Shown: positions 44,679 through 64,000, counted from the first letter of the stretch. The stretch is DNA of 64,000 nucleotides from Bacilli bacterium (GCA_017409785.1 JAFQSD010000002.1:162597-226596), one strand, 5' to 3'. The notes: generated by a model not told the origin, from the letters alone. Numbers and translations: made by a program.

Positions 44679-44754
44679 AGCACCACTACTCCTTACTACT
44701 AAATCAAATCGATTTATACCTCCACTATATCATTTTATTCCTCGAAAAAAATAT

Positions 44755-44803: not shown

Positions 44804-44813
44804 TTTCTAGACA

Positions 44814-44845
44814 CAAAAAAAGAACTATTTCTAGTTCTTTTATTC
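44814..44845 (-). terminator. Rho-independent terminator after the 225-aa gene.
   Basis: Hairpin aagaactatttctagttctt followed by a T-run. Confidence 0.5.
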
Positions 44846-44916
44846 TGCCCACATTAAACTTTCTAACCATTTTAGAAACTTAACTATCTTATTAAATATA
44901 TTCTTCATACATAATC

Positions 44917-45594
44917 CTAAAAAGGCAACTCATCATCATCCGCATCAGCATCACTAAAGAAGTTCGGATTCTCTCTTTGTAACTTCTTAACTAGTTGAGT
45001 CATCTCAGTCTCAGTAGCTTGTATTACTCTATCATTAATAGGACCTACTTGATTTGCTATAGCAACCATTTCTTCTTCAGTATATCCTCTACCTTCATAA
45101 CATCTTAAGATGTTATCACAAAGTACATTTCTCATAGCCATACTATTATCATAGAAACTTCTTCCAGCATCATCCATTAAAAATACTTTATAAGCTTCTA
45201 TTCTTCTCTTAACATCATCTATTTCTGCTTGTTCCTCATCCTTACCAAGAACTACTTCCTCTGGAATAATACGAGATACTCCATAAGGCATACTTCCCAT
45301 AAGACCTATAACTTCAAATTCTCCTTGGTATCCAACTTCACTCTTATTACCATGGAATACAAATGGACTACTAAAACTAGTTGGAGTCCATTTAAATAAC
45401 TCAATAACCTTACCAGGATGATATACACCAAATACAAATCTATCTTCTTGATAAGAACTACTTACATCTTTAACAACACCTTCAAACCATCCATCATCTT
45501 CTAATAATATCTTACCTTCCCACATATCTCTATCATTAAATTGATATTCATAAGAAGAATCAAAATAACCTTTAATATCAAATAATTTACTCAT
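44917..45594 (-). CDS. Hypothetical protein with an SSB-like acidic C-terminal tip (…DADADDDELPF).
   Basis: No catalytic motif. The last residues DDDELPF resemble the SSB C-terminal DDDIPF interaction tip. Confidence 0.45.
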   Translation of the reverse strand: MSKLFDIKGYFDSSYEYQFNDRDMWEGKILLEDDGWFEGVVKDVSSSYQEDRFVFGVYHPGKVIELFKWTPTSFSSPFVFHGNKSEVGYQGEFEVIGLMGSMPYGVSRIIPEEVVLGKDEEQAEIDDVKRRIEAYKVFLMDDAGRSFYDNSMAMRNVLCDNILRCYEGRGYTEEEMVAIANQVGPINDRVIQATETEMTQLVKKLQRENPNFFSDADADDDELPF

Positions 45595-45661
45595 AAAAAG
45601 AACCTCCCTTAAATTTAGTTATTATTATAACATAGAAATGATAAATTAAAAGAAGTTTTTT

Positions 45662-45725
45662 AGGGCTAGTTAGAGATATCATTGTATATAGTATATTTGT
45701 ACCCTAGTTAAAAGTTACCTAACCA
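45662..45725. repeat. Copy 1 of the conserved intergenic element CTAGTTAGRGATATCATT-N14/15-TTGTACCCTAGTTA-N4/5-TTACYTAAC.
   Basis: ggCTAGTTAGaGATATCATTgtatatagtatatTTGTACCCTAGTTAaaagTTACcTAAC, near-identical to 50611-50669. Confidence 0.6.
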
Positions 45726-45741
45726 GAATCGCACTACAAAA

Positions 45742-47079: not shown

Positions 47080-47687
47080 CCTTCAACATAATTCTCATTA
47101 CCTATATTTAAAACCAATTTATCATAAGCATTTTGAGATATAATTGAATTGGTAATTATCTCAGTAACTGAATTTATTTTTGAATAAATATCTTCATCAG
47201 AAATAGTCTCATATTTTTCTGACAACATTTCAAAAATTGTTCCCTCTATTTTATGTTCAACATAAATAGATATAATCTTTTTAAACATCATAAATCCATT
47301 AGCAAAAGTACCATCAATTCCATTTTCTAATAAAATATCTTTTATAGTTTGCTTTAAAATTGGATCTTCATAATCAACAAAATAATCTGCAATTAGGTCT
47401 ACTTGTTCATTAAAACTATATGAGTCAAATTCTGAAATACCAAATGACAAGGTACCAGATGAAACATAGTTTTCGCTAGTTCTAATTACTTTTTTTATAG
47501 TTCTAATAAAATTAGGACTAGAAAGTGATTTAATTATATGATTTGAAGTATAACTTTCTCGATTATTAGGATATAATAAGGAACCCAGTAATTTCTTTAA
47601 ATCATGAGTATTTATATTAGATGAAGAATTAAGTTCCTCTATTTTTTTCTTAAGTCTTGGAAGTGTATTTCTAGTAGATGTACCCAT
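47031..47687 (-). CDS. Hypothetical protein, operon partner of the QueC-like gene (49-nt overlap).
   Basis: No recognisable motif. It is co-directional and overlapping. Confidence 0.4.
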   Translation of the reverse strand: MGTSTRNTLPRLKKKIEELNSSSNINTHDLKKLLGSLLYPNNRESYTSNHIIKSLSSPNFIRTIKKVIRTSENYVSSGTLSFGISEFDSYSFNEQVDLIADYFVDYEDPILKQTIKDILLENGIDGTFANGFMMFKKIISIYVEHKIEGTIFEMLSEKYETISDEDIYSKINSVTEIITNSIISQNAYDKLVLNIGNENYVEGWMTEHIPLILKGISI

Positions 47688-47769: not shown

Positions 47770-48756
47770 ATGTTTTGTCATACTATTTCAAAAACATATT
47801 TAGAAAAATGGAAAATAAAAGATAAAAAAGATAGTATATATGTATTTAACAAAAATAATTTATCAAACCAAGGAGAAATAAGAGACTTAACTAATTTAAC
47901 AAAAACAGAATTAGGATATACAAACTATTATTACTTAAAAATTGAAGATTGTGATCATAAAATTTTTGATAATATGTTTCAGGATTTAATAGATGAAATC
48001 AACAAACAATATATATTAAAATTCAACAAATTAGAAATAAAAACAGCTACTCAGTTTAGATTAGCTTATTTAAAACATGAAGACAAATTAAAAATATATA
48101 GGCGCGATAATAATGTAGAAATAAAACTTTCAAGAATAAATAAATTAATTCTAGATAGTTGGAATATATCTAAAAAAAGATATATTGAAGACTTTTTTTC
48201 AAAAGAAATAGAAAATGATTGGCAAAAAGTTGTAAATGAATTTGAAACAATAATTAAAACAAAAGCAAAATTATCAAAATTTGCAAGAGAAAAACTAATT
48301 TTATTTATAGCTACACAAATAAACCGTAATCATAAAAAGCACAACGAAAAGATCAAAATAACACAAAATGACGAAATACTAAAAAAAATACTCATAGTAT
48401 CAATTTACGAATTTATCAAAATATATAATCACGAACAAGAAGACAATAATGACAATTACATATTCGAAACATATAAACAATTAAAAAAAACAAATTTACA
48501 TATTACCATACTACATACAGAATCCTCGTTTATTACTACGGACAATCCAATAATTACTTACAAGCATAACCATAAAGATAGTATACTTATCCCAATAACA
48601 CCAAATATCTGTTTAATTATACAAAATAGTTTAATAGAAAGTCTTTCTATTAAAAAAATTAATAGTATAGAAACAAAAAAAATAAATAATGAATTAATAA
48701 ACAATGCCATAAACAACATAGTATACTTTGATAAAATAATTACTGAGCTTTATTGA
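47770..48756 (+). CDS. DUF4238 domain protein.
   Basis: The N-terminus CHTISKTYLEKWK matches the DUF4238 HxxxxxYLxxF/W signature. Confidence 0.55.
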   Translation: MFCHTISKTYLEKWKIKDKKDSIYVFNKNNLSNQGEIRDLTNLTKTELGYTNYYYLKIEDCDHKIFDNMFQDLIDEINKQYILKFNKLEIKTATQFRLAYLKHEDKLKIYRRDNNVEIKLSRINKLILDSWNISKKRYIEDFFSKEIENDWQKVVNEFETIIKTKAKLSKFAREKLILFIATQINRNHKKHNEKIKITQNDEILKKILIVSIYEFIKIYNHEQEDNNDNYIFETYKQLKKTNLHITILHTESSFITTDNPIITYKHNHKDSILIPITPNICLIIQNSLIESLSIKKINSIETKKINNELINNAINNIVYFDKIITELY

Positions 48757-48856: not shown

Positions 48857-50320
48857 CTAATAAGCAATCTCTAGAAGTTTTTTTGAAACTCTTGCTTGAA
48901 CTTTTGCATAATACGCTGCTTCTACAGAATTTAAACTATCATCTTCCCACTTTTCAAAAGATTTAACTGCCTTTGCATATTTGCTCATGTATGTACCATA
49001 ATCTTTTAGCAATTCAACATCAGTACCATCAGACTTAGAATATTTCTCCATAAAACTAATATACTCATTCATAAATTCTTCATAATTGTCCATAGCTTCC
49101 TTAAACTCTTTTCTCATACCATCTACCATATTAGAAGAATTTTCATTTTTAGTTTCTTTTTTAGACTCTTTTTCAGGAATGACATCTTCGTCATCTTCAT
49201 CATAATCTTCTGGAACATTTAATGCAATTTCAATAACATTTGCACCAGAATATCTTACTGTTAGTTTATAACCATCTTTATTTTCTGCGGAATAATATTT
49301 TTTATCTTTACTATAATCAACCATGAATCCCTTATCTTCACAATCCTCTACATAATCACTATAGTCATCAATAGTCATATTTCCAATATATACAATAAAT
49401 GTTTCACTATTATTCCAAGAAATATTTCCTAAGTTTGATTTTGGCTTAGGGAGTTTACTACCAAGTCCACTCTTTGGCCATTCAATTTCTTCCATTTTTT
49501 TAGGAGCTTCCAAAGTAATATCCATTGTTTTTCCATCTTCATCATAATCACTAAATAAAATTCTAATTGAATATCCTTCTTTATTAAATGCACCATATAC
49601 ATCATCCCATTCTTCATATTCAAGATCTATTGTATACCCAGCAGCAATTACTTTATTAACATAAGTTTTATACTCTTTTTTTGTAATATCATAAATCTCA
49701 ATAGATAACATATCTTTGCTATCAACACTAATTACTCCATACAACTTATCTGGTACTGGAAAATAATCTATTAATTCTACATCAGAAACATCTAATTTAG
49801 TTGGTTTTTCATTATATGACGTAGTATCTCCATTTGTAGTAATTATAGGTATAATAAGTACAAAACCTAAAATAGCTAAAATTATTTTTAATCCTTTAAA
49901 TGGTTCCTTTAAAATCTTCATTCCCATTAACCAAGCACTTATAAATGCTATTGCTTGAATTAAAGTTAAAAATTTTGTTAAAAATCCAGTACATACAAAG
50001 AAAAATAAAACTGCTATTGCAAAGAATACTAATAATACTTTACTAAACTTCCCCTTTTTAAAATTTTCAACCGAATTTAATTCTTCTTTTACTTTCTTTT
50101 CTTTTACTTCTTGTTCTAAAATATCATTTCTTTCTTTTAATGCTTGTTCGTGATTATCTTTACGAGCCTTTAATTTGGCATCCTCTACTCTTTTAATTTT
50201 TGTTGCCTCATCATCTATTAGTATCTCAGCACCACAATAATTACATGTTATTTTTTCTAGATTTTTGTTTGCATCTAAAGTAGCACCACAATTTTCACAT
50301 TTCAATTTTACTAATTTCAT
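48857..50320 (-). CDS. Membrane protein with two N-terminal zinc ribbons, two to three TM helices and an acidic C-terminal domain.
   Basis: CENCG…CNYCG is a double CxxC. The TM helices are LLVFFAIAVLFFFVCTGFL and IILAILGFVLIIPIIT. Confidence 0.5.
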   Translation of the reverse strand: MKLVKLKCENCGATLDANKNLEKITCNYCGAEILIDDEATKIKRVEDAKLKARKDNHEQALKERNDILEQEVKEKKVKEELNSVENFKKGKFSKVLLVFFAIAVLFFFVCTGFLTKFLTLIQAIAFISAWLMGMKILKEPFKGLKIILAILGFVLIIPIITTNGDTTSYNEKPTKLDVSDVELIDYFPVPDKLYGVISVDSKDMLSIEIYDITKKEYKTYVNKVIAAGYTIDLEYEEWDDVYGAFNKEGYSIRILFSDYDEDGKTMDITLEAPKKMEEIEWPKSGLGSKLPKPKSNLGNISWNNSETFIVYIGNMTIDDYSDYVEDCEDKGFMVDYSKDKKYYSAENKDGYKLTVRYSGANVIEIALNVPEDYDEDDEDVIPEKESKKETKNENSSNMVDGMRKEFKEAMDNYEEFMNEYISFMEKYSKSDGTDVELLKDYGTYMSKYAKAVKSFEKWEDDSLNSVEAAYYAKVQARVSKKLLEIAY

Positions 50321-50672: not shown

Positions 50673-50717
50673 AACAATAAACAAATATAGTATAATATTG
50701 TTAGTGGAGGAATTTAT

Positions 50718-51995
50718 ATGAAACTTAGAATTGGAGAAATATTCAGATTATCAAACGATTATAGTACAGATACACAAGAATTTATTGATGGAGTTAAAAA
50801 TTTTATATATTATACAAAATCAAAAAACATTGAATCAACATTCAGATTTGAAAGAGGAATACATAAAACCAAAAAGATCGATGCTATTGATTTTGATAGA
50901 AACCCTATAATAATAGTATCAAGCTCTCCACACAAAGCTGGAACAGATAATACACCATGGAAAGACAGATATGATCCAGATAACGGAACAGTAATATACT
51001 ATGGTGATTGTAAAAGTAATGAAACAAATCCAGCGGATGCAAGTGGAAATAAAATATTAATGAAAGAATGGGAAAATCATAGTTCAAATGATACAAAAAA
51101 AAGAGAAAAGGCAACTCCTATCGTTTTTTTTGAAAGAATAAAAATGGGATACTTACAATTTCATGGTATTGGAGTATTAGAAAAAGTAAGTCTTATTACA
51201 CAAAAAGGAAAAGAAAATGAATTTACTAATTTTGAATTTGAGTTCTGCATATTAGACTTATCAAGAGAAAATAATTTACTTGATTGGGAATGGATATCTG
51301 ATAGATGTGATAAAGAGAAAAATATTACTGAAGCAAACCAAAAAGCTCCTAATTCATGGAAATATTGGATAAAAAATGGTAACGATAAAATTGAAAAAAT
51401 AAGAAGACATGTTTTAAAATCTAAAATAGTAAAAGAAAAAGAGCAAAAAATTCCTAATGGTTCTTTTGAAGAAAAAATATTAAAAAAAATTGAAAATCAT
51501 TATAAAGGAAAAGAACTAAAATTCGAATTGTTCGCATTACAGATAACGCAATTCTTTTTCGCAGATAATAATATCAAATATTTAGATGGATACATTACAA
51601 AAGGCTCAGGAGATAAAGGAATAGATTTTATATCTAGAATTGATATTGGACAAGATATTTCAGGAATAAAATTAATTGTAATCGGACAAGCAAAATGCCA
51701 AAATAGTACTATTAGTAGCAAAGATATAGCAAGAACTATTGCAAAATTAAAAAGAAACTATGTAGGAGTATTTGTGACCAATTCGACGTTTTCACAACAA
51801 ACACAAGAAGAAATCCTGGAAGATCAATATCCATTAATTATGATAAACGGAAAGAAAATAGCAGAATTAACAAATAAATATATTCTTGGTAGTTCTAAAG
51901 ATTTAAATAAACTACAAGAGTATCTCAATAATCTTGACGTACAATATGAAACATATAAAAGTAATATTAGACCAGATGATATAATATATAAATAA
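50718..51995 (+). CDS. Mrr-catalytic-domain restriction endonuclease with an N-terminal ~250-aa putative modified-DNA sensor domain (type IV-like).
   Basis: The C-terminus GDKGIDFISRIDIG…LIVIGQAKCQ…GVFVTNSTFS matches the Mrr_cat PD-(D/E)XK pattern (GxxGxD…GQxK). The N-terminal domain is uncharacterised. Confidence 0.6.
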   Translation: MKLRIGEIFRLSNDYSTDTQEFIDGVKNFIYYTKSKNIESTFRFERGIHKTKKIDAIDFDRNPIIIVSSSPHKAGTDNTPWKDRYDPDNGTVIYYGDCKSNETNPADASGNKILMKEWENHSSNDTKKREKATPIVFFERIKMGYLQFHGIGVLEKVSLITQKGKENEFTNFEFEFCILDLSRENNLLDWEWISDRCDKEKNITEANQKAPNSWKYWIKNGNDKIEKIRRHVLKSKIVKEKEQKIPNGSFEEKILKKIENHYKGKELKFELFALQITQFFFADNNIKYLDGYITKGSGDKGIDFISRIDIGQDISGIKLIVIGQAKCQNSTISSKDIARTIAKLKRNYVGVFVTNSTFSQQTQEEILEDQYPLIMINGKKIAELTNKYILGSSKDLNKLQEYLNNLDVQYETYKSNIRPDDIIYK

Positions 51996-52021
51996 AAAAG
52001 AAAATTTTAAAATTTTCTTTT
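51996..52021. terminator. Bidirectional terminator.
   Basis: Hairpin aaagaaaattttaaaattttcttt. Confidence 0.55.
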
Positions 52022-54115
52022 TTATTTTATACCATTTTCTTCTAATTTTTGTTTAATCTCAAAAATAATTCTTGTTTGAGCTGGAGACATTCCCATTACA
52101 AGACCATTACAATATTTAATAGCAAAATCAATAAATTCAATGTCCTTACCATTGACAATTCCTTGTTCAATACCTATTTTTTTTACTCTATTCCAATATT
52201 CAGTCCCTAACTGAAATATCTCAACTTCTTGCATTACTGAATTATTAAGTTTTTCATCTTTTTTTGCACTAAGCGCTTCAATCTTTTTTTCTTCTTTAGA
52301 AATCAAAGAGTCTAAAGTCTCCTCTGATAATGTATAATTTTTGTCTTTTATAGTAAGCCAACAATCCTTTCTCTTAGTGTACTCGCCAATATTATTAAAT
52401 GTTCTATTTGGATCATTAAATGAATCAAAACATAATTTTGATATATTAATTATTTCGTCAATTAAATATTTCGGAACACTTTGTTTATCCCAAATAGTCT
52501 TATAATCTAATTCCATATTGCCATTTTTCTTTACCTCATATATTAATTTTGAAAATGAATATGTTACTAATTGTGCTCTGTATGCTTTATTCTCAATATA
52601 CCAATCTTGCTCTGAAATGACTTTTTCAATTGTTTTAAATAATATAGCCTTGGATATTAAATCCTTATAAAATAATTCATTAAACCTTAATTTATCTTTA
52701 TTCCATTGATTTTCAAGATCAGTTTGAAAATCAACTAAGTTAAGTTGAGCACCTTTAGAAACAGCATATGGTTTCATAGCTGCAGAGTTTAAATATTTTG
52801 CTAAATCTGTCTTAGTAAACTTTTGATTTTTAGGATTTAATTTAGTATATTTTTCTCTTTCAGCTTTTGACATGCTCATTTTAGGTTGATCATATTGACC
52901 TCTAGCCCTTTCAAAGAACCATAAAGTTTGATAAGGTTGATTATTAACAGGTGGTGCATATGTTTTTCGCGAAAATTCCTCCATTTTGACATAGAACGGA
53001 TGATTTGAATTTAAATCAGCAGCAGTTACTTTATTCTGACTATTTGCAAATTTAGAAATACTGTGAACAAATTCCGGATCATCTTCTTTAACAATAGTTA
53101 ATTTCATTTGTACATAAATATTATCTAGTGAAGCTTTATCTTTTATATCTGCTGACGCCAAAGATGCTGTTGTTTGACCACCATTTATAATTTGAAAATC
53201 ATTAAATTCTGTAATATATAATCCTTCATTTGGAACAATATCTGTTTTTATATCTTTAGCAATTGTAGAAATTCCATTATTGTAAGTAAAAAATTTATTT
53301 CGTTCATTTAATATAGTTCCACGAATTCCTTTATTGACAGCACCTTTTGCATTAAGAAAAGATCTAACGTTTGATTCAAGTAATCTTGGACCATATTTTT
53401 TGTAAATATCGCATAAAAATTTCCCAGGTACAATTGCTAAATAAGCTTCATATTCGCTAGTACCTATATCCGCCTTTATACATTGAATACCTTTAAATCC
53501 AAAATCGGATGTATTAATAACTACAGGTTCCTTTTTAAAATCTTTTAATCTAGAGTTATAAATCATTTGAATATCAATAACGTCTAATTCAACTTTAAAT
53601 TTTCTATTATTGTAAATAAAATCTGGAAAGTCTATTGTTTTAACCCGAGTACTTAATTTATTGGTTGATATTATTATTAAATGGATTTTATTAATAGAAT
53701 CAATATTATTTAAAATACTATATGCTAATTGAACAGCCTCATTACTATCTTCTGCATAAGCAAAGTATCCTTTTAAAACATTTTCAAAATAATTTATCAT
53801 TAATTGTGATTTTGAATTAATAAACTCATTTGTTATTGTTGAAACAGCATCTGGATTATAATCAGATATTAATAAATCAACAACGTTTGCCGGCAAATCT
53901 AAATATCCAGCGTCAATCTGCATGTTTTTAAAAGCTTTTGTTCCTTTATTAAAAGAATAAAAGCATTTTTCAAGCCCATTAATAATAGAAAAATCTTCTA
54001 TTAATGTGTCAGACATTTCATCTATAAACGCATCTGGTTGATGTTCACTGTTTTCTACAGCAGTTAAGTTTATTTCATTAATATAATCTTCTCTAAATTC
54101 TTCTAAACTAATCAT
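52022..54115 (-). CDS. AIPR-like (abortive-infection phage-resistance) protein, last gene of the methyltransferase-linked operon.
   Basis: At 697 aa it has the size of AIPR-family proteins. It is called from its position in a Z1/GHKL/Dcm operon. Its start overlaps the upstream stop (ATGA). Confidence 0.45.
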   Translation of the reverse strand: MISLEEFREDYINEINLTAVENSEHQPDAFIDEMSDTLIEDFSIINGLEKCFYSFNKGTKAFKNMQIDAGYLDLPANVVDLLISDYNPDAVSTITNEFINSKSQLMINYFENVLKGYFAYAEDSNEAVQLAYSILNNIDSINKIHLIIISTNKLSTRVKTIDFPDFIYNNRKFKVELDVIDIQMIYNSRLKDFKKEPVVINTSDFGFKGIQCIKADIGTSEYEAYLAIVPGKFLCDIYKKYGPRLLESNVRSFLNAKGAVNKGIRGTILNERNKFFTYNNGISTIAKDIKTDIVPNEGLYITEFNDFQIINGGQTTASLASADIKDKASLDNIYVQMKLTIVKEDDPEFVHSISKFANSQNKVTAADLNSNHPFYVKMEEFSRKTYAPPVNNQPYQTLWFFERARGQYDQPKMSMSKAEREKYTKLNPKNQKFTKTDLAKYLNSAAMKPYAVSKGAQLNLVDFQTDLENQWNKDKLRFNELFYKDLISKAILFKTIEKVISEQDWYIENKAYRAQLVTYSFSKLIYEVKKNGNMELDYKTIWDKQSVPKYLIDEIINISKLCFDSFNDPNRTFNNIGEYTKRKDCWLTIKDKNYTLSEETLDSLISKEEKKIEALSAKKDEKLNNSVMQEVEIFQLGTEYWNRVKKIGIEQGIVNGKDIEFIDFAIKYCNGLVMGMSPAQTRIIFEIKQKLEENGIK

Positions 54116-55071
54116 AATTCCTCCACTTTGAATCTATCAATACCAGAAAGATTAATAGTATATGTAACATTTTCTATTTCATTAAAGCTTATAGTACTCT
54201 TTGTTAATCTAGGAAAATTATTTGAAACTTCATACAAAATTATATTTTTCATATCATATCTTCTAGATCCGAAATTATTTTCAGGACCAACACCAGATTC
54301 TATTAATTTATTTAAAAAATCATCTTGAATTCTAATACTTGTTATTTCATTCATAATAACTTGAATTAAATCAAATATCGATGATAACTTTCCCTTATAT
54401 TCTGGGGACATTTTTTCAACTTTAACCACACTTAAATAGCCTGTTTTATTTGAATCTAATTGATTAATTGATCTTATTTCAATTGTTGTAGCATTAACAC
54501 TTGATGTTTTTAATTCATACCAGGTCTCATCCACAGAAAAATCTTTATTAAATTTATGTGGTCCAGCCCATGATGTAACTGCTACATCAACACCATATTT
54601 TGGCATCATATACTTATACAGAAAATATAATTCACCATATAAACCTTGTTCTTTTTCTTCAGATAATTCTTTAACAGAAACATTTTGAAACATTTTTTTC
54701 CAATTATAAAATCTCTTTTTCAAATAATTTAACTCCTGCTCTTCATCATTTAAATTACCTAGCGAATTAACTATATCAGAACAAAAAGTATAAAATAAAT
54801 TTGAAAAATTATTATTTTCTAAATCAAAACTTAACCAATTTAAATTTTCGTTATCTTTGTAATAACTAACACTAATCATTTTTGTAGATTCTATTTGTTC
54901 TGGTACTAATGTAGATAAAAAAGCTAGTCTTTTTTTTCCTTCCTTGGATAAGCCATAAAAGATTTTTACCTTGTTAGTACTTTCAACTTTCTTTAATATA
55001 TCACTAATTGAATTCAATTCTTTGAACTTGTCTTCAAAATTAATCTTCATTTGGATCATACTCCTCTTCAT
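54112..55071 (-). CDS. PD-(D/E)XK-like hypothetical protein of the methylase-linked operon.
   Basis: GELYFLYKYM…VDETWYELKTSS is a candidate E…D…ExK motif. The ORF-track start at 55077 is a TTG, and the first ATG is at 55071. Confidence 0.35.
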   Translation of the reverse strand: MKRSMIQMKINFEDKFKELNSISDILKKVESTNKVKIFYGLSKEGKKRLAFLSTLVPEQIESTKMISVSYYKDNENLNWLSFDLENNNFSNLFYTFCSDIVNSLGNLNDEEQELNYLKKRFYNWKKMFQNVSVKELSEEKEQGLYGELYFLYKYMMPKYGVDVAVTSWAGPHKFNKDFSVDETWYELKTSSVNATTIEIRSINQLDSNKTGYLSVVKVEKMSPEYKGKLSSIFDLIQVIMNEITSIRIQDDFLNKLIESGVGPENNFGSRRYDMKNIILYEVSNNFPRLTKSTISFNEIENVTYTINLSGIDRFKVEEL

Positions 55072-57838
55072 ATTCAAAATCTAACGATAATTGTTCTATT
55101 TTTACTTTATTTAAAACATATGTAACTCTTTCCTCGGTTTTAATTCCAGGAAAACCAAGTGCAATTCCAAACAATGGAGTTCCATAATTAAAATTTTGAA
55201 TTGCAGACATTTCATATTCATTAATAGATGCAACATCTTTCTTTTTTAGCCTAATAGGATATATAACCAATAAAGGTCTTCTATTTATATTTAAATAATC
55301 ACTTGCAATAAGATCTTTACCATTTCGGTTAGTCATATTAACTTTAGCTTGTGCAATTTGTTCTTCTGTCAAACCACTATTGAATATTCCTGGTTCATAT
55401 AATCTATTCTTATTACCAGATATTCTTATAATGCTATCTGAATCATTCATATCAAAAGAACGGCTAACTAATGGTATTTCATAATCTTCAACTTTCCAAA
55501 AACTATTTTCATTTTGATTTACCATAATATTTTGTGAACCAGTCGCAATAACTAAATCCCATTCCTGCATTGATACCGAATTTTTAATATAGTCCGATAA
55601 GCTTTCTGTATCAAAACTTTTATTTAAATATGGTAATTTAAATTTACTAACAAAATCCGCAATTAAACTTTTAGGAATTCTTTGGATCATTAATCTATTA
55701 TTAATTTCTGAGAATTTTAAGTCTTTTTCTTTTAAAACATTCAATAACAAATTAATTGTATTCTTATTATCCTCATTAATTTTTTTGTCATTATATATTT
55801 TAGAAGTATCAGTAGCCGAACCACTATAATTTAATGTAATAGTTTTAGCCTCTGTACTCCTCATTTTATTCTTAGCTGTAACATTCATCTTTTCATATTT
55901 TTCAAGTTCCTCACCACTTGATATAAACATTTGCATATTTAATCTTGCAGGAGATTGTTTAACCATCAATCCAAAATCTTCAGGAGTTTTATTTTCAATA
56001 TTCATTTGTTTAAATTGTGCTTTTAAATTAGAAACAGCATCAATTACATCTTCAAAATTATCAACATTTTCTTGTGTCATATAAATTCTACATAAATCTT
56101 CATAACCAGGTCTATAGCCAAACCAACGACACATTTGTAAAACAGTATCATAGGCATTAGCTTTTCTATTAAAATAGCTTATCATTAGTCCTTCTAAAGT
56201 TAATCCTCTTGATAAAATAAATCCTCCTATTGCAATAACTCTGGCACCCTCAGTTTCATAATCATCATAATTAAATCTATTTTTCTTATTATTATTATTT
56301 ACCACCGTAACGATAAATTGTTGAATTTCATCATTTAATCCTGCTTGAATCTGATCCCATGTGAATTCAGCTCTAATATCGGAGAAAAAATCATCATTAT
56401 ATTCTTCATACAAATCGTTCATATATGGGTCTCTAATAAAGCTATTAAAGTCTGATTTATATGTTTGCGAAATTGTATTTTTCATCAAATCTATATATTC
56501 ATTTATTTTATCAAATATTTTATATTGAATAGAATTAAATCTAGATATATTAATCATCATAGTTCTATGTTTAAATTTTTTTCCTCTTAATGTTCTTATA
56601 ACATTTACTAAAATAAAATCATTAATTGATTTTTTCAAACTATTTGGTAAAACAGAAAAAATATCATCATCTTTCTTATGCGTTAATAATAAGAAATTAT
56701 TTTCATGTGGATCAAGTATTTCAATATGCTCGTATTTTGATTCTTCAATACTTCCAACATTATTAAACACTTTATTTGCACCAAAATATGAAGATGGTTC
56801 CCTTAATTGAACAATAAAATCTGATGGAAATAAATCTTTATTTGCTTCATCATCATATGGATTAATAAAAATATTAGCAAATGGTGTAGCAGTAAACCCA
56901 ACATAAGAAGCAATAGTAAAATTATTAAATAAATCTCTTATTAACTTATTAATAATAGATGGATCTTCAGTATTTTTTGTATTAACAGACCCATTATCCG
57001 CTTCATCATCTATAATTAAAATATTTTCAGATGTTATACCATGAATTCCTGGTTTTAAGTAATCTTTAACTTGTGTTAAAACGCTTTTATTCTTCTTGAC
57101 AACTAATATTAATGGTTTATTAAAATCACTAGAATTAGTATTTTGATTTTCTCTTACTTCTTTCCCAAAATCAGAATTAACATTTGTCAAAGGAATAGCA
57201 TAATATTTATTTTCTTCCGCTCCAACTCCGACAAACTCAATATTCGAACTACTAATAGTGTCACTCTTTGCACCTATAAATCCAGAATCAACACGTTTTT
57301 GTGTTTGTTCTCTTAAAGAATCTGTCATTCCTGCTAATAAAACAATTACTTTATAACCATAATCAGCTGCCAAATTAATAAGCGCTGTGTAATTTGCAGT
57401 TTTTCCTGATTGAATATCACCCATTACTAACCCTTTTTTCTTTGAATTTTTTACGTCACTCAAATTATTTGGATCAGCACATCTCACTAATATATCATTT
57501 GTAGCTTTAGTCATTTTTTCAAGAGAATCTTCCGGAAAATCTTGCTCTCTTAAATAATCTATATATCTATCAAAATAATTTGCAGAAACATTTGAAGATT
57601 TCATCCAATTGTTAAAATCCTTATCTTTTACTAAAAACTCTGCATCCGGATTAACAATGCCAATATTTGTTATATATTCGTCATATATTTTATTCTTAAT
57701 ATCATCTTTGTTAGAATCTTTAAATATACTCATTTCTAAAACAATATCAATTGCTTCTCTAATTTTTTCGATTGATTTATTTTCTCCTCTTAAAAATTCT
57801 TTTAACATTCGATATGCTTTTTTTTCTAAATCAGACAT
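55040..57838 (-). CDS. Z1-domain P-loop ATPase.
   Basis: GDIQSGKTANYTALINLAADYGYKVIVLLAG is the Z1-type Walker A block. The start is trimmed to MSDLEKK, which is preceded by an aaagga RBS. There is an 8-nt overlap with the upstream GHKL gene. Confidence 0.65.
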   Translation of the reverse strand: MSDLEKKAYRMLKEFLRGENKSIEKIREAIDIVLEMSIFKDSNKDDIKNKIYDEYITNIGIVNPDAEFLVKDKDFNNWMKSSNVSANYFDRYIDYLREQDFPEDSLEKMTKATNDILVRCADPNNLSDVKNSKKKGLVMGDIQSGKTANYTALINLAADYGYKVIVLLAGMTDSLREQTQKRVDSGFIGAKSDTISSSNIEFVGVGAEENKYYAIPLTNVNSDFGKEVRENQNTNSSDFNKPLILVVKKNKSVLTQVKDYLKPGIHGITSENILIIDDEADNGSVNTKNTEDPSIINKLIRDLFNNFTIASYVGFTATPFANIFINPYDDEANKDLFPSDFIVQLREPSSYFGANKVFNNVGSIEESKYEHIEILDPHENNFLLLTHKKDDDIFSVLPNSLKKSINDFILVNVIRTLRGKKFKHRTMMINISRFNSIQYKIFDKINEYIDLMKNTISQTYKSDFNSFIRDPYMNDLYEEYNDDFFSDIRAEFTWDQIQAGLNDEIQQFIVTVVNNNNKKNRFNYDDYETEGARVIAIGGFILSRGLTLEGLMISYFNRKANAYDTVLQMCRWFGYRPGYEDLCRIYMTQENVDNFEDVIDAVSNLKAQFKQMNIENKTPEDFGLMVKQSPARLNMQMFISSGEELEKYEKMNVTAKNKMRSTEAKTITLNYSGSATDTSKIYNDKKINEDNKNTINLLLNVLKEKDLKFSEINNRLMIQRIPKSLIADFVSKFKLPYLNKSFDTESLSDYIKNSVSMQEWDLVIATGSQNIMVNQNENSFWKVEDYEIPLVSRSFDMNDSDSIIRISGNKNRLYEPGIFNSGLTEEQIAQAKVNMTNRNGKDLIASDYLNINRRPLLVIYPIRLKKKDVASINEYEMSAIQNFNYGTPLFGIALGFPGIKTEERVTYVLNKVKIEQLSLDFEYEEEYDPNED

Positions 57839-59285
57839 AAGCACCGATCCTTTCAATTATTAACTCCCTTTTATCGGAAATACTCTTATAAACATCAGTC
57901 TTTAATAATTCTTCTAAAATTGCTTCTTTTTTGCGATCTGGTATACATTCTAAATCTTTGCACACTTGTTCAATTAATTCTTCCTGAGAACTACTATCAC
58001 TATCATTAACTATTTTCAAATCATCTAAAGTATCATTTTGAATAGAATATTTTGGCAATCCCATTTCAATCTGAAATATAAATGAATCTAATAATTTTTT
58101 ATCATTTTCTGATAGATTCTCAGACAACAATTTATATATAGGATTGTCTTTGTTTAATTCATATTTAACAAATCCGTCTCTTAAATTAATTCTGTTCCAA
58201 ACTTTATCTTCAAATTGTTGTTCCTTTACACCTCTAAAACGAGTGGTTCTTTTACTCCTATGAACCGAATCTTCTAACGAAGCTTTGATTGAATCCTTAA
58301 TTTTATCAGGTATTTTTGCCGTAGATTTTTTTACATCCAAGCTCCATTCTTTATCCAATGTAGATGGAATTTCAATTTTAACACGAGCTAATTTGCTCAA
58401 TTCACTTCTAACATTCATATGAAGCCAACTACCCCAAATAATAAGGCGCTTATTTCTATATATATAAAATCCTTGTTCATCATAAATATTTGTATTTCCT
58501 AATAATTTTTTTTCCTCAATAGTTAATGTATTAGCAAATGGTAACGTATAGGGAGTAATTGTAATAATTGAACCATCCATATGAATAAAATCTGTTCTAC
58601 CAGTTTGTTGTCTTGGGGCTGAGTTAATTAAAAATGGATCTCTTTTTTCTATTCTATCATTATTAAAATAAATATTAACTGAATCATAATAATAATGGAA
58701 AACCAACTCCACATGCCTTTTAGCATCCGCGACAGCATTACGAAATGACGTCACGAAATTTGTTGCTAAAGCATCTAATTTATCAAATTCTTGCCAAATA
58801 ACTAGCGTACCTGTTTCGTATTTAGTTAATTGGTCATAACACGGCATTTTAACGAACTCTTCTTCAGTTAAAACTTCTAATCTCCAATCATTTTGTTCTT
58901 CAATATCATCTAAATCATAGCACATAGCATTTATACAACTTTTAGCTTTACTAATGACAGTCATTTTTCGACACTGAGATAACGAAGCTGATTTCAAACC
59001 TAATCCAAATCTTCCAAGATCCAATTCATTATCAATCTTTTGGCTTCTATCGGACCCAAAAGTCATAGCATTTTTTAATTCTTTATAATCCATACCTAAA
59101 CCATTATCTAAAATAGCAAAATAAGGTACATCTAAAGGATCAGCATAAATATTTATTTCTGTAGCTTTAGCCGTAATACTATTATCAATTATATCTGCTA
59201 CAGATGCAGCAAAACTATAGCCTATTGATCTAATCCCAGCAATTAACGATTTAGCTGGAGGAATTTGTATTATATATTGTCCCAT
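57831..59285 (-). CDS. GHKL-superfamily ATPase (HATPase_c_3, MutL/MORC-like).
   Basis: The Bergerat fold motifs are ADIIDNSITAKATEI (N-box), ILDNGLGM (G1) and GRFGLGLKSA (G2). Confidence 0.75.
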   Translation of the reverse strand: MGQYIIQIPPAKSLIAGIRSIGYSFAASVADIIDNSITAKATEINIYADPLDVPYFAILDNGLGMDYKELKNAMTFGSDRSQKIDNELDLGRFGLGLKSASLSQCRKMTVISKAKSCINAMCYDLDDIEEQNDWRLEVLTEEEFVKMPCYDQLTKYETGTLVIWQEFDKLDALATNFVTSFRNAVADAKRHVELVFHYYYDSVNIYFNNDRIEKRDPFLINSAPRQQTGRTDFIHMDGSIITITPYTLPFANTLTIEEKKLLGNTNIYDEQGFYIYRNKRLIIWGSWLHMNVRSELSKLARVKIEIPSTLDKEWSLDVKKSTAKIPDKIKDSIKASLEDSVHRSKRTTRFRGVKEQQFEDKVWNRINLRDGFVKYELNKDNPIYKLLSENLSENDKKLLDSFIFQIEMGLPKYSIQNDTLDDLKIVNDSDSSSQEELIEQVCKDLECIPDRKKEAILEELLKTDVYKSISDKRELIIERIGAYV

Positions 59286-59289
59286 ACAT

Positions 59290-60318
59290 TTAATCCTTTC
59301 TTAGCATTAATGAATTTATACTTTTAGAAAATTTCAAAATATCATCAACACTATATCTTTGTATTTTTTCTTTACTAAGAACATTCGTAATCATTAATAC
59401 TTCAACATCATCCTTAAAATCATTAATAAACTTTAATTTTTTTGATGAAATATTAAAATACTCATTATTTGATGTTGTATAGAAAACTAATATATATTTT
59501 AGCCTATAACCATATCTACATTCAAAATCATATAATGAATACGGATACATAGAAGAAATATTAATAACTTCATTTTTATACTCATCTTTTAGCTCTAATT
59601 CAATTAATGAAATAGCCTTATCTTTTGCAATTTCCATATATTCCAAATAATTATCAGGGCCAATTAGTTGACCATATTTTTGCCTTAGTGAAACAATTTC
59701 CATATCATATGATTCAGCAAATTCATTAAATATACTTGTAAATTTATTACCCACGCCTTTATTGTTTATAAAAACTTTTGAATAAGGAATATGATTTTCG
59801 CCAATAATAGTTACATTAAAATTCAGTATGTCTAAATCAAAATCATACTCAAAACTATTTACAATAAAAGCATAATCATTTAATTTTTTTGAAATTAAAC
59901 TCATAATATATTTATTATCTATAACAATATCGTCATCTTCAAATTTTAAGCTCAACGGATAATGAAGTTTTATTCGTCCAAATTGAGCTTTAGTTGGATC
60001 AACTTCTTCTTTTATATACATGCAAAACATAGTACCATCATTTTCAATTAAATAACCATTTACAGATATTTTATCGAACAAAAAAACATTATTGATTTTT
60101 ATTCGCGATTTTGAATTTTTTATTAATTCATCTATAAGCTTAGGTTTAAAATTAAAATTAATTTGCTTAGGTATTTTAAATATTTGCATTAATCTCTCAT
60201 TAGTTGAATTCCCCTGTTTTATAGGAGTTGAAACTGTCGCAGTATGCCCCGATTCATTATCATTAAATATATTTAAAAATAAAGATTTAGTATCAATGGG
60301 TAATGTTATTTTTTGCAC
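59290..60318 (-). CDS. Hypothetical protein (342 aa), between the methyltransferase and the GHKL ATPase genes.
   Basis: No motif. It overlaps dcm by 1 nt and is followed 4 nt later by the GHKL gene. Confidence 0.4.
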   Translation of the reverse strand: MQKITLPIDTKSLFLNIFNDNESGHTATVSTPIKQGNSTNERLMQIFKIPKQINFNFKPKLIDELIKNSKSRIKINNVFLFDKISVNGYLIENDGTMFCMYIKEEVDPTKAQFGRIKLHYPLSLKFEDDDIVIDNKYIMSLISKKLNDYAFIVNSFEYDFDLDILNFNVTIIGENHIPYSKVFINNKGVGNKFTSIFNEFAESYDMEIVSLRQKYGQLIGPDNYLEYMEIAKDKAISLIELELKDEYKNEVINISSMYPYSLYDFECRYGYRLKYILVFYTTSNNEYFNISSKKLKFINDFKDDVEVLMITNVLSKEKIQRYSVDDILKFSKSINSLMLRKD

Positions 60319-61460
60319 TAGTCTTCCATCTCCTTTATCATTTGTTTAAAAATTTTTTCTAAGATTGGAACTATAATAGAATTTCCAATTAATTTATTAA
60401 TTTTTCTATAACTTAATCCTAAACTTCTAACCTTTTCATAATCTTCTTCAGAAAAGCCCATCATCAAGAATGCCTCTCTCATAGTAAGCAATCTATAAGA
60501 CTCTCCTTTTGGCCCATCATATGCTATCATCCCAGAATTATTTTGTCTATCCATATTACAAGTTATCGTATTAAAATATGTAATTTCGTTTATATCTCTT
60601 TTATTTGTATTCCACATTTTTTCTCTTGAAACCGTTCTAGGTAATTGTGCTTCATCAGCTTCAGACTTATACACCGGATTAGAATAATCTAATCTTAAAA
60701 AATTATATATTTCTTTTCGTTTTAATCGTTTCTTTGGAATTTGAGAAAGAATATCTTCTTTTCCATTTAAAACACTAAGCATAAAACATCTTTCTCTATC
60801 TTGTGGAACACCAAAATCGATACCAGAAAAAACCATAACTTCGTTTCTATATCCTAACTTTTTCAAAAAACTCTTCCACATTTCAAAATCTTCAGCATTT
60901 GAGGGAGCAAGAATAGCTTTTACATTTTCCATAAGTAAAAACTTAGGTAATCTGTTTTCCTTAGACAATCCATTTAAAATTCTTTCTATTTCCCACAACA
61001 AACCAGATCTAGTACCTGAACCTTTTTTCATTCCTTGTGTTTTTCCACCTGTAGATAAATCTTGACACGGAAAACTATAAGTTAGCAAATCATGGTCAGG
61101 TATTTCTGACGAATCAATATCGATTATAGAACCAAGATTTTTAGATCTTTTATTTGCAACATATAATCTTTCTATTTCACCCTTTGTTAAACCTTTTAAA
61201 CTATTACATGGCTTTACAGAATCTTTACTAAAAGTAAAATTACTTAAATATTTAATTTGCTCTTCATATGATGGTATTTCAATTATTTCATCACTACAAT
61301 TAATCGCATCATAAGATAAAATTGCATTAATAAACCAATCACTTGTTGCAACAATTTCATGTTTTATTTTAGAATTCTTCAGTGCTTTGGCCTGAGCGCC
61401 AATACCAGAAAAAGTTTCAAATACTTTTAATTTTCTTGTCATACTTCGTACCCCCATCAA
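60318..61460 (-). CDS. dcm: DNA (cytosine-5)-methyltransferase.
   Basis: Motif I is FETFSGIGA (FxGxG). Motif IV is SFPCQDLS (PCQ). Motif VI is ENV. Motif VIII is QDRERCF. Confidence 0.85.
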   Translation of the reverse strand: MMGVRSMTRKLKVFETFSGIGAQAKALKNSKIKHEIVATSDWFINAILSYDAINCSDEIIEIPSYEEQIKYLSNFTFSKDSVKPCNSLKGLTKGEIERLYVANKRSKNLGSIIDIDSSEIPDHDLLTYSFPCQDLSTGGKTQGMKKGSGTRSGLLWEIERILNGLSKENRLPKFLLMENVKAILAPSNAEDFEMWKSFLKKLGYRNEVMVFSGIDFGVPQDRERCFMLSVLNGKEDILSQIPKKRLKRKEIYNFLRLDYSNPVYKSEADEAQLPRTVSREKMWNTNKRDINEITYFNTITCNMDRQNNSGMIAYDGPKGESYRLLTMREAFLMMGFSEEDYEKVRSLGLSYRKINKLIGNSIIVPILEKIFKQMIKEMED

Positions 61461-61802
61461 TTATAATTATTTATCATTATATCTATAAGATATATTTTCA
61501 ATTTTTGATTAAAATCTAAACATATATGATTTAATGTATTTAACAATTTTTCTAAATTAATTTAATAACATCTTATATACAATAAGATTATATCATATAA
61601 AGAACCAAATTCCCTACGATTTAAAGAAAAAAGCTAAAATATAAACAAACAATAAAAAAAGATGTAATCTAAATTACAACTTAGAAATTTTAATATATTA
61701 TTTGTTACCAAAGTATTCATAAAATTAAATGCTAGAAAAAATGAATATAAACTAAATTGGGAGACTTAATATCTATCAAAATGGTAAGACAGAACAGCTG
61801 TC

Positions 61803-62663
61803 TTAAATATCCTCACCATAATAATCATCATCTTCAAACTCTTCTTCAGAAAATTGAATAGGTTCATATTCACCTGATTCTACTAAATCTATTTCATACT
61901 CAGATAATCCCCAAGTGTTTCTTAATTTGTCTCTATACTCTTCTCTTTCTTTTTCTTCTCTTGATTTCTTACGATTTTTATAAATACTGTATCCTACAGC
62001 ACCTACTGCCATAGCATCACCAATACTAATTCTATCACCAGGTTTTACCTGTTTAAAAGCATCATCACTTGTTAATAAATTAAAGTCATCATATAACTCT
62101 AAAAAATGATTATAAGAATTTCTAACTATCTCTAATAAATCATCATTTAAATCTATTAGTTTTATATTTCTAAATGACTCAATAGTTTCTTCATATTCTT
62201 GTAATTCAAAATACAAAGAATCTAATTCATCATTATCTTCTTCTACTTCTGCATAAGACATTTCTACTTCTAATAATTTATTTTCTATATCATCACATAT
62301 ACTAAGTATTTCATTAAAAGAAAAAGTATTATCTTTAACTTCACTTTTATTATTAGAAATAATAGGTTCTATTTTTAATTTATCATTATTAGGAGTTGGT
62401 TCATAATTCCATTTTATACTAGTATGAGTACTATTTCTTTTAAGCACATTTCTTCTAGAATTTTCTTCTTGAAATTGCTTTTCAGCTTTCTTAATTTTAT
62501 GTTGTTCTACCATCTTAATAATATCAGCAGTAATCCACAATACAACACCAATAACAATAGGTACTAATAATATAGGAAAAGCACATACTACAGCAACAGG
62601 TACAACTAATGCAACTAAACATCCATCTACTTTTTCCGAATTTCTTTTTCTGTTTCTTCCCAT
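61803..62663 (-). CDS. Membrane-anchored hypothetical protein with an acidic C-terminus.
   Basis: N-terminal TM helix (LVALVVPVAVVCAFPILLVPIVIGVVLW). Acidic tail …EEEFEDDDYYGEDI. Confidence 0.4.
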   Translation of the reverse strand: MGRNRKRNSEKVDGCLVALVVPVAVVCAFPILLVPIVIGVVLWITADIIKMVEQHKIKKAEKQFQEENSRRNVLKRNSTHTSIKWNYEPTPNNDKLKIEPIISNNKSEVKDNTFSFNEILSICDDIENKLLEVEMSYAEVEEDNDELDSLYFELQEYEETIESFRNIKLIDLNDDLLEIVRNSYNHFLELYDDFNLLTSDDAFKQVKPGDRISIGDAMAVGAVGYSIYKNRKKSREEKEREEYRDKLRNTWGLSEYEIDLVESGEYEPIQFSEEEFEDDDYYGEDI

Positions 62664-62675
62664 ATTATCAGCTCA

Positions 62676-63296
62676 CTACTTTCTTTTTTTTACTTCTTCT
62701 AACCACAAACGAAACTCTGCATCAAGTGGAATTTCATCTTTATATTTTTCTCTAAACCATTTTTGATATTCTAAATAATCATCATAATTATCCAACTTAC
62801 TCCAAGATGTATTTAACTTAGAATATTTAGTAATAGATAACATATAACTATCAATAGGAATATGACAATACTCATAGACAGCATCTATTCTAGAATATTC
62901 TAACAAATGTAAATTTTTAAAGGTCATATTAATCCATTTTTGAGCTTGACCAATTGTAAATTCTTGTTCACCAAATATTTCTATTAGCTTGTAGCATTGC
63001 TCTCTATGCAATTTATCAAATAATTCTTGATTCATATTACATTCCACAATATACTCAATGTATTTTTTTATACTTTCCCTTGCATTAGTTTTAATAACAT
63101 TATTATTTTTATTAGATGCAAAACCACGAATAGTTCTCATTAAATCTCTATATGCTTTGCCAATAGCTAATTCAACAACATCATCTTCAAATAAAGTTCC
63201 ATTCCACCATTTATTTTTTTCTTCAGTTGTTATTACACTTTTTCTCATTAAATACACCACACTTATATATAAATTATAACATAAAAGAAGTCTCAC
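62676..63296 (-). CDS. Hypothetical protein.
   Basis: No diagnostic motif. The start may be the internal MRKSVITT (63248). Confidence 0.35.
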   Translation of the reverse strand: MRLLLCYNLYISVVYLMRKSVITTEEKNKWWNGTLFEDDVVELAIGKAYRDLMRTIRGFASNKNNNVIKTNARESIKKYIEYIVECNMNQELFDKLHREQCYKLIEIFGEQEFTIGQAQKWINMTFKNLHLLEYSRIDAVYEYCHIPIDSYMLSITKYSKLNTSWSKLDNYDDYLEYQKWFREKYKDEIPLDAEFRLWLEEVKKRK

Positions 63297-63304
63297 GACT
63301 TCTT

Positions 63305-64000
63305 TTACTTATTATTAACAATTTGAATAATTAACTCACCATGAGTTTTCACTTTTATAGGAGCAAGTATATTAGAATTCTTTAATTCTTCTAATGTTTT
63401 TGGTCTAAGTTCTACTAACTTATCTAATTCTTCATTATTAAAAACATAGTAAGCAGGATAATTCATTTCTTTAGATCTAGCTACTCTAAAGTCTAATAAT
63501 CTTTTCTTTAATTCATCATCACTTATTTCTTTAACTACTTCTTTACCAACAAACTTATCTTTATAGTATTCATAATAATTAATATTATTAACTACATTCA
63601 TATTTAAAAATGTATTAGCCCAATCTTCTAATTCTTTTCTACTATACCATATAGTTTTATCAGACTTATCTAAATCATATTGTATTTTTCTAACTAAAGC
63701 ATCTGCTTTAATAACTTTATCTTTAATATCTTTGGGAGCATACTTTGTATTTAATATAGTTTCATTATTGGCAGCTACTACTAATACTCTATGAGTATCA
63801 GTAAAGTTGTTTTCTGATAAAGCTCTTTTAATAAAATTAATTACTTTATTAGAACTTAATCTGTTATTCCAAATCTTTTTATATACATCTCTTTGAGCTT
63901 CTACTTGTCTTAATGGAGAATACATACCTTTCTTAATCTTTTTATTATTAATATTATATTCTCTAATAAAGTCACCATTTTCATTAACTGTAATATTACC
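63305..64000 (-). CDS. Hypothetical protein. The gene probably extends beyond the window end.
   Basis: The reading frame is open upstream of the first ATG (63925) all the way to position 64000. No RBS precedes that ATG. Confidence 0.35.
   Translation of the reverse strand, partial: GNITVNENGDFIREYNINNKKIKKGMYSPLRQVEAQRDVYKKIWNNRLSSNKVINFIKRALSENNFTDTHRVLVVAANNETILNTKYAPKDIKDKVIKADALVRKIQYDLDKSDKTIWYSRKELEDWANTFLNMNVVNNINYYEYYKDKFVGKEVVKEISDDELKKRLLDFRVARSKEMNYPAYYVFNNEELDKLVELRPKTLEELKNSNILAPIKVKTHGELIIQIVNNK

Follow-up and report, generated by a model that had tools for sequence, protein, structure and literature searches.

The 64,000-nucleotide stretch of a Bacilli bacterium genome considered here (GCA_017409785.1, JAFQSD010000002.1:162597-226596; hereafter the window) carries on its minus strand, from 52022 to 61460, six head-to-tail open reading frames that form one operon. 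This cassette, in DNA of 25-29% G+C, opens with a gene for a C5-cytosine DNA methyltransferase (Dcm), continues with a gene for a 342-amino-acid (aa) protein, and ends with four genes whose products resemble proteins of the anti-phage system Mza. A gene for a modification-dependent (Type IV) endonuclease converges on it. The genes, with the family matches that identify them, are:

60318-61442, minus strand: gene 1, C5-cytosine DNA methyltransferase (Dcm), 374 aa (PF00145); ATG at 61442, the mechanical reading frame reaching a TTG at 61460
59290-60318, minus strand: gene 2, 342-aa protein (no match in Pfam, PADLOC or NCBIfam)
57831-59285, minus strand: gene 3, GHKL (MORC/MutL-like) ATPase, MzaB homologue, 484 aa (HATPase_c_3)
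55040-57838, minus strand: gene 4, MzaC homologue (PADLOC MzaC, E-value 1.9e-102)
54112-55050, minus strand: gene 5, DUF4420 PD-(D/E)XK nuclease, MzaD homologue, 312 aa (PF14390); ATG at 55050, the mechanical reading frame starting from a TTG at 55077
52022-54115, minus strand: gene 6, AIPR-family protein, MzaE homologue, 697 aa (PF10592)
50718-51995, plus strand: neighbour, AspBHI/MspJI-family modification-dependent (Type IV) endonuclease, 425 aa (RE_AspBHI_N and Mrr_cat), convergent with the operon

Pfam families were found for five of the six operon proteins, gene 2 being the exception. The genes are packed closely. The stop of dcm and the start of gene 2 share one nucleotide (TAGTG), four nucleotides separate gene 2 from the GHKL gene, and the DUF4420 and AIPR genes overlap by four (ATGA); across the whole operon the junctions are overlaps of 1-11 nt or the single 4-nt gap. 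A Shine-Dalgarno-like purine run is found at every junction, and all six genes are translationally coupled.

The same arrangement recurs in many bacteria. A survey of one genome per species, in which six-frame open reading frames were searched with the window proteins, yielded 53 loci. Most of them come from gut Clostridia, Bacilli, Erysipelotrichaceae and Mollicutes-like metagenome-assembled genomes (MAGs); Fibrobacter, Prevotellaceae, Riflebacteria and alphaproteobacterial MAGs are also represented. The full six-gene set is present in 46 loci, and in 45 of these the order and strand are those of the window; the lone exception, L052, has a different Dcm, which follows AIPR. In each of the seven incomplete loci a contig end interrupts the cassette. 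Nowhere among the 53 loci was the 342-aa protein seen without the cassette, nor was a pair of Dcm and 342-aa protein found without the four downstream genes. A first-pass annotation of this DNA had regarded the 342-aa gene as a local extra, a view that does not survive the presence of all six genes in 46 of 53 species-level loci.

The genes are also inherited together. Two homologues of the 342-aa protein, with 46% and 54% identity, lie in the same six-gene arrangement between unrelated flanks, and the similarity of each protein to its counterpart in the window co-varies across loci (Spearman 0.55-0.78). At the DNA level, loci L009 and L011 are ~80% identical to the window over 52.0-61.44 kb, which is exactly the six genes. 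In L010 and L012 a similar identity (~80%) runs unbroken from 50686 to 61434 and takes in the AspBHI-like gene as well. Outside these borders no DNA homology was found with any of the four. Since the identity starts and stops at the cassette borders, the cassette is a discrete block that moves horizontally.

Gene 1 matches PF00145 (4.8e-52) and TIGR00675 (9.9e-42, NCBIfam). Its translation shows FSGIG (motif I), FPCQ (IV), ENV (VI), QDRER (VIII) and GNSI (X), with a target recognition domain (TRD) between motifs VIII and IX, as in C5-cytosine methyltransferases; the earlier statement that a Dcm with FxGxG, PCQ, ENV and QxRxR motifs heads the operon can thus be read directly from the protein. 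Among solved structures the nearest homologue is M.MpeI, a CpG methylase (4dkj/8c56; 1.2e-43), which aligns over the full length, though poorly in the TRD. In the 53 related cassettes the catalytic motifs and a segment of the TRD (...EAD.AQL..T.SR..MW..N...TITCNMDR) are at least 90% conserved, and a TRD conserved throughout the family implies one common specificity. From its sequence, the Dcm looks functional, with a fixed specificity. The observed/expected ratio of CpG is 0.45 in the window, 0.69 in the cassette and 0.38 in the first 40 kb (1-40 kb). CpG depletion is common in low-GC genomes, so the value for the window is not diagnostic of the Dcm target; the higher ratio inside the cassette fits recent import.

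The remaining four genes can be related to known families. PADLOC matched genes 3, 4, 5 and 6 to MzaB (5.9e-49), MzaC (1.9e-102), MzaD (2.1e-14) and MzaE (3.6e-61). The NCBIfam models for Mza (NF041931-NF041935) also matched MzaB (4.5e-66), MzaD (2.7e-24) and MzaE (3e-82), but the bit scores of 223, 418, 86 and 277 for MzaB, MzaC, MzaD and MzaE are to be read against equivalog cut-offs of 850, 1500, 420 and 1050. Because they fall so far under these cut-offs, the four proteins are, as judged by profile scores, homologues of the Mza proteins and not equivalogs or close orthologues. Gene 3 contains HATPase_c_3 (1.1e-32), and its best solved homologue is human MORC2 (1.8e-6). In alignments of 44-55 homologues taken from related cassettes, its Bergerat motifs ADIIDNS, DNGxGM and GRFGLGLK are conserved at 90% or more (55 sequences), with Asp in place of the usual catalytic Glu in all aligned homologues. 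Gene 5 belongs to PF14390 (DUF4420, 3.7e-52), with the E, D and ExK residues of GELyF ... KDfs ... WyE.KT conserved to the same degree, at least 90% (48 sequences). Gene 6 matches AIPR (PF10592, 2.2e-91) and AIPR_N (8.7e-16) in Pfam and AbiU (2.9e-20) in PADLOC; QIINGGQTTA, again at least 90% conserved, NSQNKV..ADLNS.H and FERARGQY are its conserved segments (44 sequences). The GHKL ATPase, the candidate PD-(D/E)XK protein and the AIPR-like protein of ~700 aa that had been proposed on first reading are all upheld by these profiles and motifs. With the 342-aa protein set aside, the proteins of the operon look active from their conserved motifs.

In the reference Mza operons, on a Thalassospira plasmid and on E. 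coli chromosomes, the gene directly 5' of mzaB is mzaA, whose product is a sigma-70-family protein of ~700 aa (NF041931, 1.4e-145). No methylase is present in the E. coli operons. MzaA was not found in the window with PADLOC or NCBIfam, and neither gene 1 nor gene 2 matches it; of the markers by which Mza is recognized, MzaB, MzaC, MzaD and MzaE have counterparts here, and an MzaA directly upstream of mzaB does not. The cassette thus has the four-gene effector core of Mza and differs in its head, Dcm and the 342-aa protein taking the place of MzaA. The likeness to Mza pointed out in the first-pass annotation holds for genes 3-6 as homologues of MzaB-E, and fails for MzaA and for the equivalog cut-offs. 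Its further statement, that the validated Mza is one of the methylase-associated cassettes, was mistaken: the E. coli operon is headed by the sigma-70-like MzaA and contains no methylase.

E. coli mzaABCDE protects against T4 with cytosine (C) or hydroxymethylcytosine (hmC) DNA and more weakly against T4 with glucosylated hmC (ghmC) DNA; infection is not accompanied by growth arrest, and purified MzaD cleaves DNA (bioRxiv 10.1101/2022.06.16.496414). A Mza-like subtype of Serratia, SDIC2, also gives phage protection, and it is for these two systems only that protection has been shown. No solved structure of a Mza protein was found. In the literature searched the names MzaA-E were not found, and the sole mechanistic data found are those of the preprint, which uses lower-case gene names. 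In E. coli G1/2 (L064, 5988-8830) an IS421 insertion splits mzaB, and Mza there is probably inactive.

The families themselves have been discussed for some time. GHKL proteins of the paraMORC group were predicted to act in restriction-modification (R-M) operons with DCM and AIPR, looping or clamping DNA between recognition and cleavage sites (Iyer et al., PMC2292703), and AIPR was placed in a family described as encompassing a ParB-superfamily nuclease domain (Makarova et al., 2013, PMC3632139). Five-gene methylase-linked cassettes have the same four effector genes and a C5-cytosine methylase, as in the window (PMC5608340; PMC2292703). They differ in lacking the 342-aa protein, and their methylase, of a different and longer Dcm type (545-575 aa), follows AIPR or is convergent. 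The ATP-dependent systems CglI, NgoAVII and BceSIV, built from M, R and H/N subunits, are less similar. Their R subunit combines a PLD nuclease with a B3 domain, whereas in the candidate reader of the window a degenerate PD-(D/E)XK fold accompanies an N-domain of unrelated type, and the GHKL, DUF4420 and AIPR proteins have no counterpart in CglI. A Pfam search of the six proteins detected neither a PLD nor a B3 domain, and in a structure search the model of the 342-aa protein was unlike such structures.

The 342-aa protein is the distinctive component. Besides its absence from Pfam, PADLOC and NCBIfam, a profile of the family retrieved nothing at E<=10 from all PDB chains, and tblastn with the protein found no match in plasmid and phage collections. 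A collection of 5.8 billion proteins holds 298 homologues, all of ~340 aa and none with an annotated domain. When 1.84 billion representative proteins were searched exhaustively with a profile, only 138 clusters came back, and the family is therefore small and tight. An AlphaFold2 model based on a 32-sequence alignment (pLDDT 88.8, pTM 0.86) has two domains. The N-terminal one, residues ~1-190, is beta-rich and has no match among solved structures in a structure search. In the C-terminal one, residues ~200-330, helices and strands succeed one another as in the restriction-endonuclease fold (alpha-beta-beta-beta-alpha-beta). Foldseek found no significant match for this domain (best E 0.01-0.05), although nucleases of the Hjc, RecU, MGME1 and HincII types recurred weakly over ~100 residues, with probability up to 0.99 in the viral library. 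The protein is not a diverged MzaA, since hhalign against Thalassospira MzaA gave a probability of 0.1, nor a duplicate of a neighbouring gene, since hhalign showed it to be unrelated to the AspBHI-like and DUF4420 proteins.

In distant relatives with ~30% identity (P0147, P0150, P0156, L061) the active site GxLGE...PYD...Y(I/V)EVK is intact, and the C-domain of these proteins matches the PADLOC nuclease domains TmtA and PD-T4-1. In the window and all 52 other members of the clade I, L, V or M takes the place of the beta-3 glutamate, so that ExK is lost; the window protein has lost the lysine too (KYILVFY). What is left in the clade is D264 and a new, invariant YDxE. The nuclease fold is therefore probably catalytically dead or repurposed.

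These observations bear on the possibility that two systems lie side by side on one transcript, a Type II R-M pair made up of Dcm and a 342-aa PD-(D/E)XK endonuclease, and a methylation-independent MzaBCDE-like module. The position of gene 2 would suit such a pair, as R genes often follow and overlap the methylase gene directly; the fold of the C-domain, the GE...D...EVK active site retained in distant relatives and the independence of the validated Mza from any methylase are also in keeping with it. A classical Type II endonuclease, however, has an intact PD-(D/E)XK site and occurs in a stand-alone M and R pair. The active site of the 342-aa protein is degenerate and a stand-alone pair with Dcm was never found, which leaves the two-system arrangement decidedly improbable.

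The N-domain has been joined to other partners. In eight proteins of 386-425 aa (P0200, P0203, P0210, P0212, P0215, P0218, P0233, P0241) it is followed by an unassigned C-domain of ~200 aa. In P0161 and P0254 it is fused to an AAA+ module that bears the McrB-type signature (FLILDEMNLSHVERYF), resembles PADLOC PDC-M26A (~1e-40) and has a weak match (E 0.005) to 6ut3, the Thermococcus gammatolerans McrB GTPase. The DNA-recognition domain of McrB-type enzymes such as McrBC and LlaJI occupies the N-terminal position. Since the fusions place the N-domain at just that position, we infer that it may be a DNA reader. Relatives of the AAA+ part of P0161 have varied N-termini, and in 4 of 13 metagenomic loci a Dcm gene lies directly upstream. 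For the fusions themselves the Dcm linkage is indirect, as the metagenome scan with P0161 gave only AAA+ relatives with other N-termini. We propose that the 342-aa protein may serve as a DNA-reading or adaptor subunit. The family is a good candidate for a new DNA-reading domain because it is confined to the cassette, widespread in gut bacteria and confidently modelled, and has no solved relative.

The convergent gene beyond AIPR was described in the first-pass annotation as an Mrr-type nuclease just past the end of the operon. It is indeed adjacent, across a 26-bp spacer, and more precisely of the AspBHI/MspJI type; it is no chance neighbour, as it co-travels with the cassette. The protein matches RE_AspBHI_N (1.2e-25) and Mrr_cat (8.5e-11) in Pfam and mREase_II (9.4e-128) in PADLOC, and its translation contains GIDF...GQAKC, the D...QAK catalytic motif of the MspJI type. 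It thus has the SRA-like AspBHI_N domain and the Mrr catalytic domain with D...(Q/E)AK of the MspJI/AspBHI family (as defined in PMC2938202). Nine of the 53 loci have a gene combining AspBHI_N and Mrr_cat beside the cassette, placed in one of three ways:

L010, L012: downstream and convergent, as in the window
L013, L014, L015, L024: upstream on the same strand, overlapping dcm
L026, L037, L044: downstream on the same strand

The AspBHI-like gene is an optional seventh passenger that travels with the cassette as a block. About half of the genes of the MspJI family adjoin a 5-methylcytosine (5mC) methylase, and the MspJI locus itself has vsr and a 'putative helicase' (Zheng et al., PMC2938202). 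In that linkage the known partner is a lone methylase; here it is a whole six-gene cassette, with the nuclease moving as part of the block. On the Thalassospira marina plasmid pCSC3H3 (L008, 12451-14871) an annotated complete MzaA-E operon is followed by an AspBHI_N plus Mrr_cat gene (7.3e-69) and a Dcm gene, and a Type IV and methylase pair therefore also accompanies canonical Mza. A 'restriction endonuclease' gene upstream of mzaA in E. coli L065 was considered as AspBHI-like and rejected, having merely a faint Mrr-like similarity.

Two other kinds of gene are found beside the cassette. At no fewer than eight further loci the gene abutting AIPR encodes a protein of 260-300 aa with a C-terminal HNH domain (HNH-protein loci: L001, L005, L016, L018, L029, L035, L046, L050, L055, L056). 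Its best solved relatives, over the HNH region only, are the 5mC-dependent McrA (6ghc, 2e-9) and TagI (6ghs); the N-terminal ~170 aa could be another reader of modified bases. In four loci (L028, L037, L039, L048) AIPR is followed by a Vsr gene (2e-31), in L037 together with an AspBHI-like gene. Vsr repairs 5mC deamination, and its presence at four cassettes argues for a methylase that is active in vivo.

The recurrence of Type IV nucleases, both AspBHI-like and McrA-like HNH, opens the question of whether the cassette is triggered by infection. In such an abortive-infection-like or modification-sensing system the effector would be activated by a signal from the phage, such as modified DNA recognized by the N-domain of the 342-aa protein, and Dcm would serve for epigenetic marking, anti-restriction or partnering with the Type IV enzyme, not for self-protection from the effector. 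AIPR takes its name from abortive-infection proteins, and gene 6 has the AbiU match (2.9e-20). The fusion of the N-domain to McrB-like GTPases points the same way, as classical McrBC reads methylated DNA, as do the AspBHI-like and Dcm pair after the Thalassospira MzaA-E operon and the ability of Mza to restrict T4 whose DNA contains C or hmC and, less strongly, ghmC. Yet E. coli Mza causes no growth arrest on infection; a translationally coupled methylase at the head of the operon, its TRD conserved throughout the family, fits self-marking; and a reader that activated a nuclease on the host's own 5mC would be suicidal. On these grounds an infection-triggered system is, in our judgment, unlikely.

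We lean instead, though not strongly, towards a methylation-guarded, ATP-dependent, multi-subunit restriction system, directed against phages and plasmids and built on the Mza effector core. The genes present, their coupling and conservation, their inheritance as a block, the domain fusions and the loss of ExK are shown by the observations above; every functional step that follows is inferred. Dcm, with its conserved TRD, would methylate a fixed short motif on host DNA and so mark self. The N-domain of the 342-aa protein would read DNA, most probably the unmethylated form of that motif, and the degenerate nuclease-fold domain would dock onto the effectors, recruiting or licensing them. The DUF4420 PD-(D/E)XK protein would cut the DNA, as its E. 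coli homologue MzaD does in vitro, and AIPR may be a further regulator or effector that binds DNA or nucleotides. The AspBHI/MspJI-type enzyme would handle the opposite case, that of an invader whose cytosines are methylated or hydroxymethylated in contexts other than those used by the host, so that the locus as a whole would hit both unmodified and foreign-modified DNA.

Several observations weigh against a methylation-guarded system. The validated Mza operon of E. coli works without a methylase; its effector core therefore needs no methylation to tell self from non-self, and Dcm might serve some other purpose. Five-gene cassettes exist that lack the 342-aa protein. No target motif could be called for Dcm, given the poorly aligned TRD of M.MpeI and the absence of a standout palindrome. 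DNA binding by the N-domain is suggested by domain fusions only, with no fold match. A 5mC-dependent nuclease beside a 5mC methylase is paradoxical unless their specificities differ, as noted for the MspJI family (PMC2938202), and the mechanistic data on Mza come from one preprint only (bioRxiv 10.1101/2022.06.16.496414). A more specific form of the proposal is possible though rather doubtful: with a fold not seen before, the 342-aa protein would sense the methylation state of a specific cytosine motif and license a five-protein restriction machine with separate recognition, clamp, motor and nuclease polypeptides.

The non-coding DNA at the two ends of the cassette contains the following:

61443-61805, minus strand: upstream region comprising the preceding gene's terminator-like hairpin, ~340 bp of A/T-rich promoter DNA and a ribosome-binding site
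51996-52021, no strand: 26-bp perfect, A/T-rich palindrome between the convergent stop codons, AAAAGAAAATT-TTAA-AATTTTCTTTT

The hairpin of the preceding gene is at 61785-61805, and the ribosome-binding site, GGGGG, lies 8-12 nt 5' of the dcm ATG. DNA homology with related loci ends at ~61437, just within dcm, and the promoter region is therefore outside the shared block. A promoter scan was uninformative in DNA of 25% G+C (96 sites against 107 expected). The palindrome, an 11-bp stem with a 4-nt loop, makes up the entire spacer between AIPR and the AspBHI-like gene. It is likely a bidirectional terminator, one that a G+C-biased terminator scan missed.

Upstream of the operon are three small minus-strand genes (61803-63925), among them one for an HRDC-domain protein (63305-63925, minus strand, 3.4e-13) with weak similarity to the C-termini of DpdF and RecQ, and one for a 286-aa protein for which a membrane segment is predicted and whose tail is acidic. 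Throughout the window the plus strand has 9.3% G and 17.3% C, a GC skew of about -0.3, and nearly all genes are on the minus strand. On the other side of the cassette the following genes precede the AspBHI-like gene:

40750-42012, plus strand: NERD-domain protein (9.8e-26)
42759-44678, minus strand: AAA_15/AAA_21 ATPase like AriA, Old and GajA (1.7e-20)
44917-45594, minus strand: 225-aa protein beside the QatC-like protein
45742-47079, minus strand: QatC-like protein (PADLOC QatC 1.8e-38; no Pfam match)
47031-47687, minus strand: 218-aa protein beside the QatC-like protein
47770-48756, plus strand: DUF4238 protein (2.1e-20)
48857-50320, minus strand: DUF6591 protein with a zinc ribbon (9.7e-84)

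The minus-strand genes from 42759 to 47687 are possibly a non-canonical Qat-like system, their order being unlike qatABCD. From these assignments the region 40-62 kb looks like a defence island, and the defence setting suggested earlier is supported by the NERD, OLD/AriA-like ATPase, QatC-like and Type IV genes nearby.

This setting must be considered along with a role outside defence, that of a MutL/MORC-like repair or chromosome-maintenance module tied to cytosine methylation, an elaborate analogue of very-short-patch repair. The GHKL proteins are related to MutL and MORC, Vsr genes are found at some cassettes, and occasional non-R-M contexts of paraMORCs have been noted (Iyer et al., PMC2292703). 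Against this stand the patchy, horizontally mobile distribution with its sharp block borders, the NERD, OLD/AriA-like, QatC-like, DUF4238 and Type IV genes of the island, and the protection against phage given by the homologous Mza and the Mza-like SDIC2. We consider a repair module highly improbable.

The four effector families have each been described already, as have the association of their genes with Dcm and that of MspJI-type genes with methylases; Mza is an established name. Within the literature searched, four things appear to be undescribed: the six-gene form with the reader-like 342-aa protein, the confinement of that protein to the cassette, its combination of a dead nuclease fold and an unmatched N-domain, and the block-wise co-transfer of the cassette with a Type IV nuclease.

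If the more specific form of the proposal, with a new methylation-reading fold in the 342-aa protein, is true, the cassette would represent a distinct class of ATP-dependent R-M system, in which the Mza core is aimed at non-self through a swappable head, either the sigma-like MzaA or Dcm with its reader, and the Type IV nuclease would be an integral countermeasure against phages that evade restriction through cytosine methylation of their own DNA. The repeated linkage of a 5mC methylase system with a 5mC-dependent nuclease extends the puzzle first posed by MspJI and suggests a deliberate, two-sided restriction. The MzaB-E core may be seen as a portable effector that accepts different heads, and a head made of a methylase and a reader would provide a simple handle, the target being methylated or not, on how this core is aimed or activated. 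The cassette is unsurprising in kind, yet it offers a tractable entry into the mechanism of Mza-type systems.

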